A DNA stretch of 36,010 nt from a virus: UHGV virus genome UHGV-0022223, one strand, 5' to 3'. Positions 24,899 through 32,006 of the stretch are shown here, one piece after another. The position numbers and the translations under genes are program-made. How positions within the stretch are numbered: the first letter of the stretch is position 1; every line of letters begins with the position of its first letter. Below the pieces are notes generated by a model. That model searched no databases and had not been told where the DNA came from. It saw nothing but the letters and a program-made list of their open reading frames with translations.

Positions 24899-26059
24899 AT
24901 GACGCAGGGCTTACCTGTATCCAACGTTGTAAACGTTGATGTGATCATCTCGCCGAAAGCGGCTACTGGTCGTAACTTCGGCGCGCTGCTGATCCTTGGT
25001 TCTTCCACTGTCATTCCGGTGCAGGAGCGCGTTCGCCTTTATGCGTCCGTTGAGGGCATTGGCGAGGACTTCGGAGTCGACAGCCCGGAATATGAAGCGG
25101 CGCAGGTTTTCTTCAGCCAGTCGCCGAAGCCGACGCAGGTTTATGTTGGCCGCTGGGCGAAGACGCTGACCTCTTCCGAAGGTGGAAGCGTGGAAACCAT
25201 TGTGCAAGCTGTTAATGCCTGCCTGCAATATACCAACTGGTATGGGCTGGTTGTCGCTGATGATGTTGCTGATGGCGGTGATGTGCTTGATGCTGACGAC
25301 GTGATTGAGGTTGCTAAACTCATCGAAGCGTCCAGTCTGAGCCGCATTTTCGGGGTAACATCTGCCGACGCCGAGATTATCAGCACGACTTCGACGACCG
25401 ATGTTGCGTCGAAATTAAAGGCTGGCAAGTATTCCCGTACCTTTATTCAATATTCCACCAGCAGCCCTTATGCGGCGGTTTCAGCTTTCGGTCGCGCGTT
25501 TACTGTCAATTTCAACGGCAGCAATACTACCATTACCCTGAAATTCAAACAGGAACCGAGCGTAACCTACGAAACACTGACGGTAGGCCAGGCTGCGGCT
25601 GTGGATGCGAAGAATGCGAACGTGTTCGTGTACTACGCCAACGACACGGCGATCCTGCAACAGGGCGTCATGGCGAACGGTGACTTCTTCGACGAGCGCC
25701 ACGGGCTCGACTGGTTGCAGAACTACGTTCAGACCAACCTCTATAACCTGCTTTACACCAGCACCACCAAAATTCCGCAGACTGATGCCGGTGTTACCCG
25801 TCTGCTTTCCAACGTTGAACAGTCCATGGATCAGTCCGTCACGAACGGTCTGATAGCTGCTGGCGTGTGGAATGGTGGCCCTATCGGACAGCTGAATTCC
25901 GGCGATACGCTGACCAAAGGCTATTACGTGTATGCGCAACCGCTGTCCGAACAGGCGCAGGCCGACCGCGAAGGGCGCAAAGCACCGTTAATCCAGGTGG
26001 CCTGTAAGCTGGCTGGCGCAGTTCATTATGCCGATGTGCAGATCAACGTGGTTCGCTAA
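24899..26059 (+). CDS. Tail sheath protein
   Basis: 386 aa immediately upstream of the tube, chaperone and tape-measure genes, as in contractile tails. Confidence 0.65.
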
Positions 26060-26069
26060 GGAGCGATAA

Positions 26070-26510
26070 ATGGCAACTTATTCTTTTCTCGATGTAACCG
26101 CGTCGCTCACCGGGCCGACCGGCGTTATCGATCTTGGTCAGGGTTCTGCGAACTCTGAGGAAGGTATCACCCAGACCATGGGCGGCAACAAAAACACCAT
26201 GACCATCGGTGCCGATGGCGAGGTGATGCACAGCCTGCACGCCGATAAGTCAGGCACCATTACGGTGACGCTACTCAAAACCTCTCCGGTGAATAAAAAG
26301 CTGTCTCTGGCGTATAACGCGCAAAGCCAGTCCTCTGCCACCTGGGGCAATAACGTGATCGTCATTCGCAACACGGCATCGGGTGATATTTCTACTGCAC
26401 GTTCGTGTGCATTCCAGAAACAGCCTGATTTCAATAACGCTAAAGAGGGCGGAACCGTCGCATGGGTATTCGACTGCGGCAAGATTGACCAGCTTCTCGG
26501 GGAGTTTTAA
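26070..26510 (+). CDS. Tail tube protein
   Basis: 146 aa between the sheath and chaperone genes; RBS AAGGAG. Confidence 0.65.
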   Translation: MATYSFLDVTASLTGPTGVIDLGQGSANSEEGITQTMGGNKNTMTIGADGEVMHSLHADKSGTITVTLLKTSPVNKKLSLAYNAQSQSSATWGNNVIVIRNTASGDISTARSCAFQKQPDFNNAKEGGTVAWVFDCGKIDQLLGEF

Positions 26511-26513
26511 CGC

Positions 26514-26939
26514 ATGGAATTCGAAATTAAAGGCGTGAAATATCGCACCGCAAAGCTCAGCGTTTTCGAACAGCTGAAGGTGTCCCGCAAGCTGTTGCCG
26601 GTTCTGGCCGGGATGGTTTCTGACTTCCGGAGCGTTCAGGAGAAGATCAGCAGCAAAGACACCGAAGGCGCGATGGCTACCATCCTGCCAAAGATTGCCA
26701 ATGCTGTGTCCGATCTGAGTGATGGCGACGTGGACGCTATCCTGTTCCCCTGTCTTTCCGTTGTTTCACGCGAGCACATGAAAGGCTGGGTGCCGGTCTG
26801 CCAGCATGGCGAAATGGCGTTTGACGATATCGACCTGCTGACCATGCTGCAACTGGTGGCGCGGGTGGTCGCCGACTCTCTGGGAAATTTTTTGCAAGGA
26901 CTCCCTACCAGCGAGACGCCCACCCCGCCAGCGGAATAA
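26514..26939 (+). CDS. Tail assembly chaperone (G-like, unshifted product)
   Basis: 141-aa ORF directly upstream of the tape measure; slippery heptamer near its 3' end. Confidence 0.6.
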   Translation: MEFEIKGVKYRTAKLSVFEQLKVSRKLLPVLAGMVSDFRSVQEKISSKDTEGAMATILPKIANAVSDLSDGDVDAILFPCLSVVSREHMKGWVPVCQHGEMAFDDIDLLTMLQLVARVVADSLGNFLQGLPTSETPTPPAE

Positions 26940-27127
26940 CCTTCAATAGCCTGCCGGGCGGTGAAGATTTTATTCTTCGTCCGGCGCTTGCCTTCCATAT
27001 TGACCAGAAAGACCTTAACAGCGGTGCGGTAGATCTTTGCCGCATCGCGCTTCTCAATGACTACCTCGACATGCGCGAGGATAACGACGCCCGGGTAGAT
27101 AAATGGAGAGCGGCCAATGAGCGGTAA
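26514..27127 (+). CDS. Tail assembly chaperone -1 frameshift fusion product (GT-like)
   Basis: Heptamer A_AAT_TTT at 26885-26891; the -1 frame is open from there to TAA at 27125-27127, encoding about 79 more residues and overlapping the tape-measure start. Confidence 0.45.
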
Positions 27128-29129
27128 CGCAGATACGATTAAAGATTTCCTTGTTTCGCTGGGATTCGATATCGATCAGGCTGGCGCTAATAAGTTTGAA
27201 GCCGTGCTGAAAGGTGTTACCGCGAACGTTCTGAAGGTCGGCGCGGTGGTGGAAGGCGCAGCGCTGAGCATTGTCGGATTTACCACCCAGATCGCGAATG
27301 GTCTGGATAAAATTTACTGGGCATCCCAGCGGACGGGGGCCAGCGTCCAGGGCATCAAAGCGCTGGGCTATGCCGCATCGCAAACCGGTGCCAGCGCCGA
27401 GTCGGCTATGTCCTCCCTCGAAGGGCTGGCGGGGTTCATGCGTAGCAATCCGGGGGCGGAAGGCTTCCTGAACCGCCTGGGTGTCCAGACCCGTGATGCC
27501 AGCGGAAAGATGCGTGATACTGCGGCCATCTTTACTGGCGTTGGGCAAAAGCTCAACAACATGCCGTATTACCGCGCGAAGCAATACGCGCAGATGCTTG
27601 GCATCGATGAAAACACGCTGATGGCGATGCGGCGCGGCATGAATGGCTTTACCGCCGATTACCAGTCGATGCTGCAAAAGACAGGGTTCAACGCTGATAA
27701 AGCGGCTGTTCAGTCCAACAAATTCATGACGTCCATGCGCGGGCTTACGTCGCTGTTCGGCATCATGCGGGACAAGATCGGCTCAAACCTCGCTGGTGGC
27801 CTGGCTGGTTCGCTGGACAGCCTGCGGCGGCGCATCCTCGACAATTTCCCGAAGATTGAAGAGACGCTTACCAGAGTTATTAACGGCGTGATCTGGCTTG
27901 CGAACGCATTCACGAGAATGGCGTGGCGGCTGATACAGGGCGCTGGCTCTGTCATCGACTGGTGGAAGCGTCTTGACGATGGCAGTAAAAATCTGCTGAA
28001 AATATTCGGTGCTCTACTTGTCGCATGGCGTCTGCTTAATTCTGCGTTCCTGAAATCCCCGATTGGAATTATCACCACGCTGATTCTGGCGATCGGATTA
28101 CTCTATGACGATTACCAGACGTGGAAAGAGGGCGGAAAAAGCCTGATTGACTGGAGCAAGTGGGAACCAGCAATAGAAAAGGCGAAAAAGGCAATTATCT
28201 GGCTGCGAGATAAGCTGTTGGAGCTAAAAGATTCTGTCGGTGGGTGGCAGAACTCACTGGAAATTTTGGCTACCTTCATTGCAGGGGTATGGTTAAGCAA
28301 AATAACCTCTGCATTTGCTAAGTTAGCCGGAATACCTATGCCGCCATGGCTGAAGCTGTGGGCTATTTATGCCGGGTATCTGGTGGACGACAGGCATAAT
28401 ATTAAAGAAAGCGCTAAATCATCATGGGACTACACCAAAGGAAACATCGGAGATGCGCTCCGCTGGATGGGGTTTAATACCGATTTTGGCCGCAATCCCA
28501 ATACCGTGTATGGCGCGAATATTCAGTCAGATATTCCAGGCGCTGAACCGGAGCAATACGCCCAGTCAGTGAAGCGCCCACAAGCCACAGCCCAGGGTAA
28601 GGTATTGCTCGACTGGATGGGGCCAATGTTCAATAAACTGGAGTCGCTTTATCAGCTGCCAGCTGGCCTGTTGAAAAGCGTGGCGATCACCGAGTCGGGT
28701 GGTAACCAGTTCGCCATATCCGGCGCAGGCGCGAAAGGACTGTTTCAGTTTATGGATGGCACGGCGCGCGACATGGGCCTGCGTGGGAATGATGTATTCG
28801 ACCCGGAAAAGTCAGCTCAGGCAGCCGCTAAGTACCTCAGCCAGCTGTTGCGGCAGAACGGCGGAGACCTTAGCAAAGCACTGGCATCATATAACTGGGG
28901 GATCGGGAATGTTAAGCGTTATGGAATGGGGCTAATGCCGCAGGAAACGCGCAATTACATTCCGAAAGTAATGAGCAATATGCCCACCAGCGCCCCGGTG
29001 ATTCAGCAGGAAACGAACATTAACATCCACGGCGTTTCCGATCCTCGCGAAGCTGCCCGTTTGACTGTTGACCGTCAAAAGGGCGTGAATTCACAGTTAA
29101 CCCAGCAACTCCCCGCAGGACCGAGATAA
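27117..29129 (+). CDS. Tail tape measure protein with C-terminal lytic transglycosylase (SLT-like) domain
   Basis: 670 aa; central hydrophobic segments; C-terminal AITESGGNQ...GLFQFMDGTARDMGL...YNWGIGNV resembles lytic transglycosylase motifs. Confidence 0.75.
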   Translation: MSGNADTIKDFLVSLGFDIDQAGANKFEAVLKGVTANVLKVGAVVEGAALSIVGFTTQIANGLDKIYWASQRTGASVQGIKALGYAASQTGASAESAMSSLEGLAGFMRSNPGAEGFLNRLGVQTRDASGKMRDTAAIFTGVGQKLNNMPYYRAKQYAQMLGIDENTLMAMRRGMNGFTADYQSMLQKTGFNADKAAVQSNKFMTSMRGLTSLFGIMRDKIGSNLAGGLAGSLDSLRRRILDNFPKIEETLTRVINGVIWLANAFTRMAWRLIQGAGSVIDWWKRLDDGSKNLLKIFGALLVAWRLLNSAFLKSPIGIITTLILAIGLLYDDYQTWKEGGKSLIDWSKWEPAIEKAKKAIIWLRDKLLELKDSVGGWQNSLEILATFIAGVWLSKITSAFAKLAGIPMPPWLKLWAIYAGYLVDDRHNIKESAKSSWDYTKGNIGDALRWMGFNTDFGRNPNTVYGANIQSDIPGAEPEQYAQSVKRPQATAQGKVLLDWMGPMFNKLESLYQLPAGLLKSVAITESGGNQFAISGAGAKGLFQFMDGTARDMGLRGNDVFDPEKSAQAAAKYLSQLLRQNGGDLSKALASYNWGIGNVKRYGMGLMPQETRNYIPKVMSNMPTSAPVIQQETNINIHGVSDPREAARLTVDRQKGVNSQLTQQLPAGPR

Positions 29130-29755
29130 TGGATATTTTATCAGCGATTTTTCGCCAGCAATCCCGGCGAATTGGCATATTAATTCCCAGCGTGGTCGTC
29201 TCCGAAAAGCATTCTGATGCGCTCGAAATTACTGAGCACCCGGTGGAGAAGCCAACAACGAATAGTGCCTCGGGTTTCATCGCCGATCATGCGTACAAGC
29301 GCCCCAGTGAAGTCACAATGGAATGCGGCTTCGCTGGTGGCGGTTCGTTGCTGGATTTCATTGATACATCTTCAATCGGTCTTAGCGCTGGGCTTTGCCC
29401 AAAGGAGACATACCAAAAGCTGCTGGATATGCAGCTTGAGCGCGTGCCATTCGATGTGGTGACCGGAAAGAGGGTGTACAGCAATATGCTGGTGCGAGCC
29501 ATCGAGGTGACAACGGATAAAACCAGCGAGAACGTGCTGAACTGCACGCTTACCCTGCGTGAAGTGATCATGTCGCAAACGCAGAGCGTTAGCGTTGCAG
29601 ATAAATCAGATATGCAGGATGGCGTCAGCACATCGGCGGTGCAGAATTCCGGGACTAAATCCACCACCCCAGTAAATGAATCGGTAATTAAGTCAACAGG
29701 GTGGTTTGATGGACTAAAAGGAACCAGTCTTGGTAACTCTATAGGTATCCAATGA
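29129..29755 (+). CDS. Tail / baseplate assembly protein
   Basis: 208-aa ORF with ATGA overlap to the tape measure. Confidence 0.4.
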   Translation: MDILSAIFRQQSRRIGILIPSVVVSEKHSDALEITEHPVEKPTTNSASGFIADHAYKRPSEVTMECGFAGGGSLLDFIDTSSIGLSAGLCPKETYQKLLDMQLERVPFDVVTGKRVYSNMLVRAIEVTTDKTSENVLNCTLTLREVIMSQTQSVSVADKSDMQDGVSTSAVQNSGTKSTTPVNESVIKSTGWFDGLKGTSLGNSIGIQ

Positions 29756-30059: not shown

Positions 30060-31124
30060 ATGTCTCTTAACTGGATGCGCCATTTTGAGCTGCAACTGTT
30101 GGACCAGAACGGGCAGGGCGTTTCCCTGTCTGACTTTAAGGTCACGTTCCAGATCGAGTGGGCAGACACACGCTGGCCGCGCGTGGCGAACGTGAAAATT
30201 TACAACCTTTCGACCGATACCACGAACAAGATACTGGGGCAGGAGTTTGCCAAAATTCGCATCATTGCCGGGTATGACGGTATAGCGCCGGATGTTGATG
30301 CGAGCCAGGTCGGCGTCGCCCGAGAGATTTCACCAGACCAGATAGGGCAGGTGAACGGTCAGAACTACGGCCTGATTTTTGACGGTGATATTCGCTTTAC
30401 CGTAACCGGGAAGGACAACATTACCGATTCCTGGGTGTTGATTCAGGCTATTGGAGATCATGAAGCGTTCCTCTACGCGACTACCATCACTACGCTTGCC
30501 GCTGGCTATACCGTTGCGGATCTGCACCGGGCGACGATGCAGGATTTCAACGTGTTCGGCGTGACACAGGGCATTACCGGCGATTTTCCTGATACCGTGT
30601 TTCCTCGTGGCCGCGCGATTTACTCATCCACTCGTAACGTGATGGATAATATTGCAGCGCAGTGCAAAGCGACATGGCAGCTGGTGGATGGTCAGGTCCA
30701 GATGGTGCCGGAGGATAAATATATTCACGAAGCCATTGTGTTGAATGCCAATACTGGCCTGATTGGTATGCCGCAACAGACGATGGGCGGCGGCGTAAAC
30801 GTGCGGTGCCTGATAAACCCAAACATCCGCATTAATGGTCTTATCCAGCTCGATCAGGCTTCGGTGTACCGCGCGTCGCTCGGTAATAGCGAAATCGCAC
30901 AGTCGCCCGGGCGTATCACCGAAACTGAAGAGAATGGCAACCGTGTGCTGACCGGTACGACGTCACAGGCTGCCAGCATTGCGACGGATGGCGTTTATAT
31001 CGTCAAAGCTATCGACTATACTGGCGACACCAGAGGTCAGGCGTGGTACATGGATTTGATGTGTTTTGCGCGTGGCAGTCGTGATTTAGTTAATGCTGGT
31101 GCTATGCAAAAAACAAACTACTGA
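30060..31124 (+). CDS. Baseplate hub-like protein (Mu gp44-like position)
   Basis: 354-aa ORF upstream of the spike gene. Confidence 0.45.
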   Translation: MSLNWMRHFELQLLDQNGQGVSLSDFKVTFQIEWADTRWPRVANVKIYNLSTDTTNKILGQEFAKIRIIAGYDGIAPDVDASQVGVAREISPDQIGQVNGQNYGLIFDGDIRFTVTGKDNITDSWVLIQAIGDHEAFLYATTITTLAAGYTVADLHRATMQDFNVFGVTQGITGDFPDTVFPRGRAIYSSTRNVMDNIAAQCKATWQLVDGQVQMVPEDKYIHEAIVLNANTGLIGMPQQTMGGGVNVRCLINPNIRINGLIQLDQASVYRASLGNSEIAQSPGRITETEENGNRVLTGTTSQAASIATDGVYIVKAIDYTGDTRGQAWYMDLMCFARGSRDLVNAGAMQKTNY

Positions 31125-31134
31125 GGTACGGGAC

Positions 31135-31470
31135 GTGAAACTCGTAATTTTTATCATTGCAGCATTATTTTCTTTCCAAGCTATTGCTGATTCTCAGTGT
31201 GGTGATTTCAAAATCCATTGGGCTGATGATGGTTTCGCTCGCGTAAACGGAGCTAAACCTGAATCGCAAAAAGTGACATTTCTTAAAAATGACGGTGATT
31301 ATAACAACGTCAAAATTGAATGGCGCTTAGCGACCAATCAACCAGGGCGATGGGTAGGAATGGAGTTTATTGGCCGTAATGGTAAAGCAATCCTGAATGC
31401 TCAGTGGCTGCAAGCCAGCATGGATTCGCCGCGTCAGTACGCAACATACGACTGCCGAAAAGTAAAATAG
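31135..31470 (+). CDS. Small secreted protein (signal peptide, two Cys), AT-rich moron
   Basis: GTG at 31135 after GAGG; KLVIFIIAALFSFQAIA then DSQ looks like a cleavable signal peptide; AT-rich; a terminator follows. Confidence 0.5.
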   Translation: MKLVIFIIAALFSFQAIADSQCGDFKIHWADDGFARVNGAKPESQKVTFLKNDGDYNNVKIEWRLATNQPGRWVGMEFIGRNGKAILNAQWLQASMDSPRQYATYDCRKVK

Positions 31471-31471
31471 C

Positions 31472-31490
31472 CCGCCAGATAGGCGGGCAT
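31472..31490. terminator. Hairpin between convergent moron genes
   Basis: CCCGCC-agata-GGCGGGC sits between the stop codons of the two moron genes; no clear U tract. Confidence 0.4.
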
Positions 31491-31493
31491 GCG

Positions 31494-31784
31494 TCAAAAA
31501 TATTGAGCTTTAATTATAATAAACACAATAATTACGAACAGGATGTTTCTAATTATTTTTTGCTTATGAGTAAGTTGTTTTTTTTCTGTCGATTTCCCGG
31601 GAGAGTAAAGGTTAGTGGTATGCGACAGCCCCGTGCCGGGAAGGCCATTTGTCATCTTTACGCCTTTTTTTCCGATGTTAATGGTGGAACCTTTACCACC
31701 AATTGAAGTGCTTACTCCGCTTTTACTAATGTTGATCGCGAGTCCGGGCGCAATCCGGATTCTTTTACGAAATCTAAATCCCAT
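31494..31784 (-). CDS. Membrane-anchored protein, N-terminus reminiscent of DUF4236-type proteins (MGFRFRKRIRIAPG...), AT-rich moron
   Basis: 96-aa ORF with strong RBS AGGAG; Gly/Lys-rich region then C-terminal hydrophobic anchor FVIIVFIII; AT-rich. Confidence 0.55.
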   Translation of the reverse strand: MGFRFRKRIRIAPGLAINISKSGVSTSIGGKGSTINIGKKGVKMTNGLPGTGLSHTTNLYSPGKSTEKKQLTHKQKIIRNILFVIIVFIIIKAQYF

Positions 31785-31972
31785 TTGTTACTCCTGTAGT
31801 CAATAATGCGATGGTGCAGGTCCACTCTATGGCGGCTTCATGGCTGAAATTGATTTTCAATGCTTACTTGTTGCAAATATATCCTAATACACCTTGTGAA
31901 TGTGTGCCATTGCAGCGGAAAAGCCTTACTTCACACTGATGTAGCTTAGTTACTAAGAGATAATTGATACCA

Positions 31973-31996
31973 AACCAGCTTCGGCTGGTTTTTTTA
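31973..31996 (+). terminator. Rho-independent terminator upstream of the spike gene
   Basis: AACCAGC-ttcg-GCTGGTT followed by T7. Confidence 0.6.
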
Positions 31997-32006
31997 TGGG
32001 GGTTTT

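Follow-up and report, generated by a model that had tools for sequence, protein, structure and literature searches.

[quoted passage not shown]

Several tailed phages are known, or have been proposed, to make their tail assembly chaperone with the help of a −1 frameshift. In phage P2, experiments have established the sequence TTTTTTG as the site of the shift that links E to E+E', which operates without a downstream hairpin (Christie et al. 2002; Xu, Hendrix & Duda 2004; summarised in PMC3091744). The frameshift mechanism that relates gpG to gpGT has been described for phage lambda (PMC5009743; Levin et al. 1993; Xu et al. 2013, 2014), and a chaperone frameshift at a conserved poly-T stretch (GTTTTT) has been proposed for myophages of the Vandenendeviridae and Andersonviridae (PMC12846349). 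Such shifts are an ordinary feature of tailed phages, and a frameshift homologous to the one described here is already annotated in Klebsiella phage Mulock. The Mulock GenBank record (MN098327, CPT_Mulock_014/015, 'tape measure chaperone' and 'frameshift product') presents the locus as a joined two-piece CDS, a 'tape measure chaperone frameshift product', and does so as a prediction. No frameshift is mentioned in the Mulock genome paper, and an exact lookup of its two candidate fusion proteins in a protein collection was negative and did not recover the annotated junction.

We analyzed a DNA stretch of 36,010 nucleotides (UHGV virus genome UHGV-0022223), referred to as the window throughout, which is a temperate myovirus prophage of Enterobacterales. 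Its segment from 26070 to 27400 shares 99% identity with E. coli chromosomal prophages, with matches in 125 of 5426 complete genomes, and matches Citrobacter phage Omnitron at 97.7% identity. The + strand encodes portal, capsid, neck terminator, sheath, tube, an ORF of 141 amino acids and tape measure, together with genes for a Dit-like protein, plug, hub, spike and baseplate. The sheath gene (24899–26059, + strand, DUF3383) is followed by the tail tube gene (26070–26510, + strand; Pfam PF11681 KPP10_Orf10, E = 6e-60), which is called 'DUF3277 family protein' in RefSeq and lies directly 5' of the 141-amino acid ORF (26514–26939, + strand, stop codon TAA at 26937–26939). The product of this ORF matches Pfam PF21822 Phage_TAC_15 (E = 4e-33) and PHROG 1688 'tail assembly chaperone' (E = 3e-57), and by both family names we assign it as the tail assembly chaperone, in its zero-frame form equivalent to G or TAC-N. 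The exact protein is found on at least 1000 contigs. The tape measure gene (27117–29129, + strand) encodes a C-terminal lytic transglycosylase domain (Pfam SLT, E = 3e-25) and gives a PhageMin_Tail hit (E = 7e-4) too weak to reach the family cut-off. The chaperone gene thus sits between tube and tape measure, in the position occupied by G/GT genes. NCBIfam holds no model that matches either the chaperone or the −1 frame extension described below.

Close to its 3' end, the chaperone gene contains the 13-nt run GGGAAATTTTTTG (26882–26894, + strand), read in the zero frame as part of the codons CTG GGA AAT TTT TTG. Three heptamers of the type X_XXY_YYZ overlap in frame within this run: G_GGA_AAT (26882–26888), A_AAT_TTT (26885–26891) and T_TTT_TTG (26888–26894), all on the + strand. 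An earlier sequence-only reading of the window had placed a programmed −1 frameshift at the second of them. A_AAT_TTT is indeed phased with the zero frame of the chaperone (GGA at 26883–26885, AAT at 26886–26888 and TTT at 26889–26891) and ends 45 nt before the TAA stop; the reading had overlooked the overlapping heptamers on either side of it.

Starting at 26825, the −1 frame stays open until a TAA codon at 27125–27127; counted from 26888, it comprises 79 sense codons, in agreement with that reading. Its end overlaps the start of the tape measure gene (ATG at 27117) by 11 nt, an overlap kept in 39 of the 54 relatives introduced below, and the last codons of the −1 ORF contain what we read as the GGAG Shine-Dalgarno motif (27105–27108) and the ATG (27117–27119) of the tape measure gene (27105–27119, + strand). 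A shift at T_TTT_TTG would leave an extension of 77 sense codons before the TAA (26894–27127, + strand), and 26514–26894 joined to this extension would encode a long form of 204 amino acids, the equivalent of GT or TAC-NC. The extension contains a DUF6889 domain (27005–27112, + strand; Pfam PF21829, E = 1.2e-11) that covers residues 39–74 of the translated segment 26891–27127, and the same translation matches PHROG 4364 (E = 2e-17). As judged from the aligned sequences, the −1 ORF lacks a conserved start codon and a conserved ribosome-binding site. Downstream of the run, no ATG, GTG or TTG occurs before codon 61 of 79, one relative (L048) has no such codon at all, and a Shine-Dalgarno-like motif is present in only 4 of 54 relatives. 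The codon that overlaps the chaperone stop varies between CTG, TTA, ATA, GTA and CTA.

An AlphaFold2 model of the −1 domain, calculated from a 12-sequence alignment, is of low confidence (mean pLDDT 65.5, pTM 0.45) and suggests two helices, a short one and a long C-terminal one, behind a disordered linker. A search of solved structures with the 204-amino acid fusion returned no meaningful match (best E = 0.32), an exact-sequence lookup of the two candidate fusion proteins of the window in a collection of 15 billion proteins was negative, and our literature search found no mention of DUF6889 or Phage_TAC_15.

For comparison, we gathered loci from annotated phages, from one genome per species (56 loci, 32–100% protein identity) and from viral contigs (80 loci), and reduced them to 54 non-redundant genes that share less than 90% nucleotide identity with each other (median 62%, range 43–89%). 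Common descent links many of the Enterobacterales sequences, so that the counts given here are higher than the number of independent events. The sequence-only reading had named a lack of conservation of its heptamer in related phages as a ground for refutation, which does not apply, as A_AAT_TTT is a valid heptamer in 44 of the 54 non-redundant relatives; G_GGA_AAT is valid in 39, and T_TTT_TTN in 52. In nine phage or prophage relatives with ∼70% nucleotide identity to the window, all 13 nucleotides of GGGAAATTTTTTG are invariant. The homopolymer core consists of six Ts in the window (26888–26893), of seven in four relatives and of four in two others, which read CCT TTT ATG.

The synonymous sites of the T-run do not vary among the 54 relatives. 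Phe-126 is encoded by TTT in every sequence (54/54), compared with 46% gene-wide, and the other two conserved phenylalanine columns of the chaperone prefer TTC. The preceding codon 125 ends in T in all 54 sequences despite encoding five different amino acids (AAT, GAT, AGT, GGT and CCT), and codons 125 and 126 thus both have T as third base in 100% of the sequences. Where codon 127 encodes leucine it is always TTG (47/47, compared with 11% gene-wide), one of six possible leucine codons; five relatives have TTT or TTC at this position instead, and the G at 26894 is 91% conserved. Gly-124 is encoded by GGA in 43 of 53 sequences, compared with 9% gene-wide.

Immediately 3' of the T-run, the wobble periodicity moves to the −1 frame. 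The variable positions 5' of the run are third bases of zero-frame codons, and from position +6 on they are zero-frame second bases, which correspond to third bases in the −1 frame. In the overlap zone, mean pairwise amino acid identity is 0.61 in the −1 frame versus 0.42 in the zero frame. The extension comprises 79 codons in 38 of the 54 relatives (range 76–84). The extension of one relative (L026) is truncated, and this copy is probably decaying. A −1 frame stop codon is located within four codons 5' of the run in 12 of 54 sequences and directly abuts the T-run in four of them, which confines a shift to the run. These patterns point to protein-coding selection on the −1 frame from the slip site on. 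We regard the comparison with relatives as decisive for the reality of the site, which the window by itself would only suggest.

We next consider natural fusions of the two domains. When searched exhaustively with a profile of the DUF6889 part, the protein collection yielded 126 proteins, five of which (191–209 amino acids, from distant relatives) combine an N-terminal Phage_TAC_15 domain and a C-terminal DUF6889 domain in a single continuous ORF. A search of close relatives for in-frame fusions returned short fragments only. The predicted 204-amino acid fusion of the window aligns with the five continuous-ORF proteins collinearly and from end to end, across the junction. In each of the five contigs, a chaperone-only gene (159–171 amino acids) is located directly upstream of the fusion gene, and these distant relatives thus keep both a chaperone-only and a chaperone plus DUF6889 gene, which speaks indirectly for a fusion protein that would be made at a low, fixed ratio and for both forms being needed in tail assembly. 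The continuous-ORF proteins therefore show that DUF6889 natively resides at the C terminus of the chaperone, and that both forms are kept. The codons at the fusion junctions are non-slippery (TTC TTC GCG, TTC CTG GCC, TTC TTC ACG, CTT CTG ACC and TTT TTC ACC), and the T-run is thus maintained only where recoding is required. By their gene layout, the five fusion-bearing elements would make the short and the long form from two tandem genes, and over evolutionary time, members of the Phage_TAC_15/DUF6889 family appear to have changed between one frameshifted gene and two tandem paralogues. As a natural experiment, this switch may help to explain why recoding is used by phages to couple the two forms, as lineages that seem to depend on the frameshift keep an invariant T-run and lineages with a separate continuous gene for the long form have lost it.

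Taken together, we consider it very likely that a G/GT-type programmed −1 frameshift yields a short and a long tail assembly chaperone from this locus. The majority of ribosomes would translate 26514–26939 into the 141-amino acid chaperone. A minority would slip back by one base on the run at 26882–26894 and continue in the −1 frame to the TAA at 27125–27127, producing the 204-amino acid form with DUF6889 in its C-terminal part. From the precedents of lambda and P2, a ratio of the 204- to the 141-amino acid form between a few percent and about 10% would be expected. In all three registers, tRNA-Phe would move from the UUU at 26889–26891 to the UUU at 26888–26890, and this re-pairing from UUU to an overlapping UUU is the one step available in every sequence that we compared. 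If the two forms behave like lambda gpG and gpGT, the tape measure protein would be coated by the N-terminal part that they share, polymerization would begin with recruitment of the tube protein by the rare C-terminal domain, and both forms would be absent from the finished virion.

The register with the widest conservation is T_TTT_TTG, in which tRNA-Phe would occupy the P site and the tRNA-Leu reading UUG the A site. T_TTT_TTN is the only heptamer left in nine sequences, which represent at least six lineages (Limnobaculum, Rosenbergiella, the Erwinia/Kalamiella group, Arsenophonus, Sphingomonas and Pseudochelatococcus). From this and from its validity in 52 of 54 relatives it follows that the T-run, rather than A_AAT_TTT specifically, is the likely universal slip core. 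The sequence-only reading was thus right about the phasing of its heptamer and about its presence in most relatives, but the site 3 nt further downstream is more widely valid. We rank T_TTT_TTG as the principal and most probable register because of its wide conservation, the TTG bias at codon 127, the common tRNA-Phe step and the precedent of P2. The predicted junction would then read SLGNFL/ARTPYQRD (slash marks the junction), with VVADSLGNFLAR as the tryptic junction peptide.

Alternatively, the shift may be real and use another heptamer, either A_AAT_TTT, where tRNA-Asn would occupy the P site and tRNA-Phe the A site, or G_GGA_AAT; we consider this reading less probable yet the most serious competitor. 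The first base of A_AAT_TTT requires the rare GGA codon that is so common at Gly-124, and G_GGA_AAT resembles the lambda sequence G_GGA_AAG. Two Bryobacterales relatives lack T_TTT_TTN; one of them (L058) has only C_CCT_TTT, in the same register as A_AAT_TTT, and the other only a T_TTT tetramer. In addition, three of the five continuous-ORF relatives carry Phe-Phe at the junction, as the upstream registers would produce. However, A_AAT_TTT is broken in 10 of the 54 sequences, from at least six lineages, by GAT, AGT or GGT in front of TTT, and these sequences retain both the −1 ORF and T_TTT_TTN. In four of the 10, the −1 stop codon abuts the T-run. Moreover, the invariant TTG among leucine codons at position 127 lies outside A_AAT_TTT, and T_TTT_TTG explains this bias instead. 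The strong preference for GGA indicates that the upstream heptamers are probably also under selection in Enterobacterales, where they may contribute extra yield in the lineage of the window. Slippage on either of them would give the junction SLGNFF/ARTP and the tryptic peptide VVADSLGNFFAR, a product that differs by one residue from that of T_TTT_TTG.

The sequence-only reading had suggested a search for downstream RNA structure. We carried out this search, and neither folding, RNAalifold nor Rfam revealed such an element. Single-sequence folds gave z = −1.69 for 26882–27000 and z = +0.16 for 26895–26960, RNAalifold, applied to 49 diverged sequences, yielded −0.69 kcal/mol and five base pairs with no compensatory change, and an Rfam E-value scan of 26600–27300 returned no match. 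An RNA structure thus appears not to be needed for the shift. Stimulated −1 signals of the dnaX or IS type carry a downstream hairpin or pseudoknot, a Shine-Dalgarno-like element about 10–14 nt upstream, or both. Upstream of the run, the moderately conserved motif GGGTGG (26863–26868) is separated by 13 nt from G_GGA_AAT and by 19 nt from T_TTT_TTG. It is a weak match to a Shine-Dalgarno sequence, and its conservation is also accounted for by the Arg-Val codons that it forms. To our knowledge, neither U_UUU_UUG nor A_AAU_UUU is among the most efficient slip sites in E. coli. We tentatively speculate that the 13-nt run acts as a multi-register slip site that offsets the missing stimulatory RNA and sets the ratio of short to long form, in a family that also alternates between one gene and two; we hold this combined proposal to be possible rather than probable.

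It is improbable that the frame is changed during transcription. In this scenario, RNA polymerase would add one U within the six Ts at 26888–26893, giving the junction GNFF/ARTP, and the resulting product, as worked out from the sequence, is exactly that of the −1 frame. Peptide VVADSLGNFFAR is accordingly predicted for a U insertion as well as for the upstream registers. The conserved core is a homopolymer run (T6 in most relatives, T7 in four), and a study by Vladimirov et al. (2022), which PMC12846349 cites, points by its title to non-frameshift routes for some chaperone genes. On the other side of the argument, the two relatives with four Ts keep the same arrangement. The conservation of G26894, the T-ending codon in front of TTT and the GGA preference fit codon-anticodon re-pairing and not run length alone. 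Known bacterial transcriptional slippage sites are runs of about 8–9 or more A or T residues, and the six Ts of the window are short by this measure.

We find it very improbable that DUF6889 is encoded by an independent small gene, translated from a non-canonical start of its own or by termination and reinitiation at the ATA codon that overlaps the chaperone stop (ATAA, 26936–26939). PGAP does predict a 63-amino acid 'DUF6889 family protein' at the equivalent of 26936–27127, a protein found in exact form on ∼1000 contigs, and stand-alone DUF6889 calls of 42–75 amino acids are common in databases. Yet the ATA start of PGAP is replaced by CTG, TTA, GTA or CTA in relatives, and the N termini of annotated DUF6889 proteins are ragged (24–100 amino acids). 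We rejected reinitiation at the ATA since the codon is not conserved and Shine-Dalgarno-like motifs are rare (4/54). Furthermore, conservation of the −1 peptide and of its codon periodicity extends over the 15 codons 5' of the ATA, back to the T-run, and in the continuous-ORF relatives DUF6889 is natively attached to the chaperone.

Finally, a chance heptamer followed by an accidentally open −1 frame of no function, which the window alone would allow (78 codons stay stop-free in 4.6% of mononucleotide shuffles, and ORFs of at least 100 amino acids on both strands contain 37 in-frame heptamers), is effectively refuted by the comparative data, namely the invariant synonymous sites, the conserved length of the extension, the match of the −1 frame to a Pfam domain and the relatives with a fused gene, and we assign it a negligible probability. 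The median −1 open length after these 37 heptamers is 9 codons, and only the slip site and one trivial case at the 3' end of the tape measure gene lie less than 60 nt from the stop with an extension of more than 100 nt beyond it.

The probable frameshift is missing from current annotation of the locus. RefSeq lists no frameshift and gives the stand-alone 63-amino acid protein from the ATA codon instead. Annotators have placed the start of the −1 ORF at an ATA (PGAP), a TTG (phage yong1) and an ATG (ST11-VIM1phi8.3), all at different positions, and database entries for this ORF are ragged fragments of 24–100 amino acids, some of them misnamed 'lytic transglycosylase'. DUF6889 can now be assigned as the putative C-terminal, T-like domain of the long chaperone form, and we suggest that the ATA-start record and the 'lytic transglycosylase' fragments be replaced with a joined frameshift CDS. 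The value of the site lies in annotation; it adds nothing new in principle to the established G/GT paradigm, and its modest further interest lies in the overlapping heptamers and the two-gene alternative.

Among the described systems, Mulock is a true homologue (∼70% nucleotide and 60% amino acid identity) that contains the identical GGGAAATTTTTTG and the same 188-nt extension past the chaperone stop. The Vandenendeviridae and Andersonviridae myophages share with the window a poly-T stretch near the chaperone 3' end, a −1 frame that remains uninterrupted across diverged genomes and a downstream ORF that annotators routinely mistake for a hypothetical gene in its own right, but they are virulent phages of other families. 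The gene position is the same in lambda, and so is the pairing of an abundant short chaperone with a rare, −1-extended form. G_GGA_AAT (26882–26888) differs from the lambda sequence G_GGA_AAG only in its last base, and neither site requires an RNA structure. However, lambda is a siphovirus, we detected no sequence homology with it, and its A-site codon AAG (tRNA-Lys) is a much better shifter than AAU.

P2 resembles the window in its contractile tail, in the location of the chaperone between tube and tape measure, in the TTTTTTG near the 3' end, in the lack of a downstream hairpin and in an extension without its own start. The two differ in that a Pfam scan of the window (E ≤ 0.01) returns Phage_TAC_15 and DUF6889 only and not the P2 E/E' families, in that the TTTTTTG of the window is preceded by two more overlapping heptamers, and in the size of the products (141 and 204 amino acids here versus 91 and 142 in P2). 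The site thus seems to work like that of P2 E/E+E' while lying outside the protein families of both P2 and lambda. The G/GT-type arrangement proposed in the sequence-only reading is borne out by the chaperone position, the in-frame slippery site, the extension with no start of its own, the DUF6889 domain, the frame switch and the fused relatives, and by every criterion that can be computed from the sequences, the site is a member of the G/GT class (Xu, Hendrix & Duda 2004).

The -1 extension of the tail assembly chaperone, which carries DUF6889, is systematically mis-annotated in databases. Our annotation comparison covered a relative's locus (L001:2367-2558, corresponding to window 26936-27127) and database proteins P0001-P0058, which match the DUF6889 part. 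RefSeq/PGAP presents the L001 segment as a stand-alone 63-aa 'DUF6889 family protein' with an ATA start, an entry recorded on ∼1000 contigs, and other records name fragments of the -1 ORF 'lytic transglycosylase' or 'NTP pyrophosphohydrolase'. A further match, P0061 (201 aa), is chimeric, with an N-terminal NAD_binding_7 domain (siroheme-synthase-like) and DUF6889 at its C terminus; its probable origin is the in-frame joining of a prophage remnant with a host gene, or else an assembly artefact. Two copies of the chaperone locus are apparently decaying: the -1 extension has only 39 codons in Enterobacter sp. R1 (L026:2501-2994), and the chaperone ORF itself ends after 47 codons in Apirhabdus apintestini (L050:2501-2644).

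At its 3' end, the -1 ORF overlaps the tape-measure start by 11 nt, and the retention of this overlap in 39 of the 54 non-redundant relatives suggests that the two are translationally coupled. The GGAG Shine-Dalgarno motif for the tape-measure ATG (27117) sits inside the final codons of the -1 ORF (window 27096-27127), which read AAA TGG AGA and onward and encode a conserved K-W-R.

Upstream of the slippery run, a moderately conserved GGGTGG (window 26863-26868) lies within the Arg-Val codons CGG GTG, 13 nt 5' of the G_GGA_AAT heptamer and 19 nt 5' of T_TTT_TTG. CGG, an otherwise rare codon, is conserved at this site in 73%. The motif could be a weak Shine-Dalgarno-like stimulator of frameshifting, or its conservation could merely reflect shared ancestry. 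A second in-frame heptamer, A_AAG_GGC (window 29078-29084), is located 42 nt 5' of the tape-measure stop, and its -1 frame is that of the next, Dit-like gene (29129-29755). This gene has its own ATG, overlapping the tape-measure stop as ATGA, and the heptamer is probably a coincidence.

A low-GC island of ∼0.9 kb (within window 31000-32000; GC ∼42% versus 52-60% in the flanks) separates the genes for the baseplate hub and the spike and has the look of a moron or cargo inserted into the tail operon. It contains a plus-strand 125-aa ORF (31093-31470) with a signal-like N terminus and without a Pfam match and, on the opposite strand, a 96-aa DUF4236 protein (31494-31784; E = 2e-20).

Distant relatives, in which both the frameshift and the slippery run are absent, contain a tandem gene pair, Phage_TAC_15 alone followed by Phage_TAC_15 plus DUF6889, corresponding to the short and long chaperone forms (L146:231-1285, L147:1989-3130, L148:577-1718, L149:2493-3585, L150:2499-3630, and L151:108-1238). 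In these contigs no tape-measure gene adjoins the pair and Dit-like or spike genes lie directly 3' of it instead, so that their gene order is unlike that of the window.
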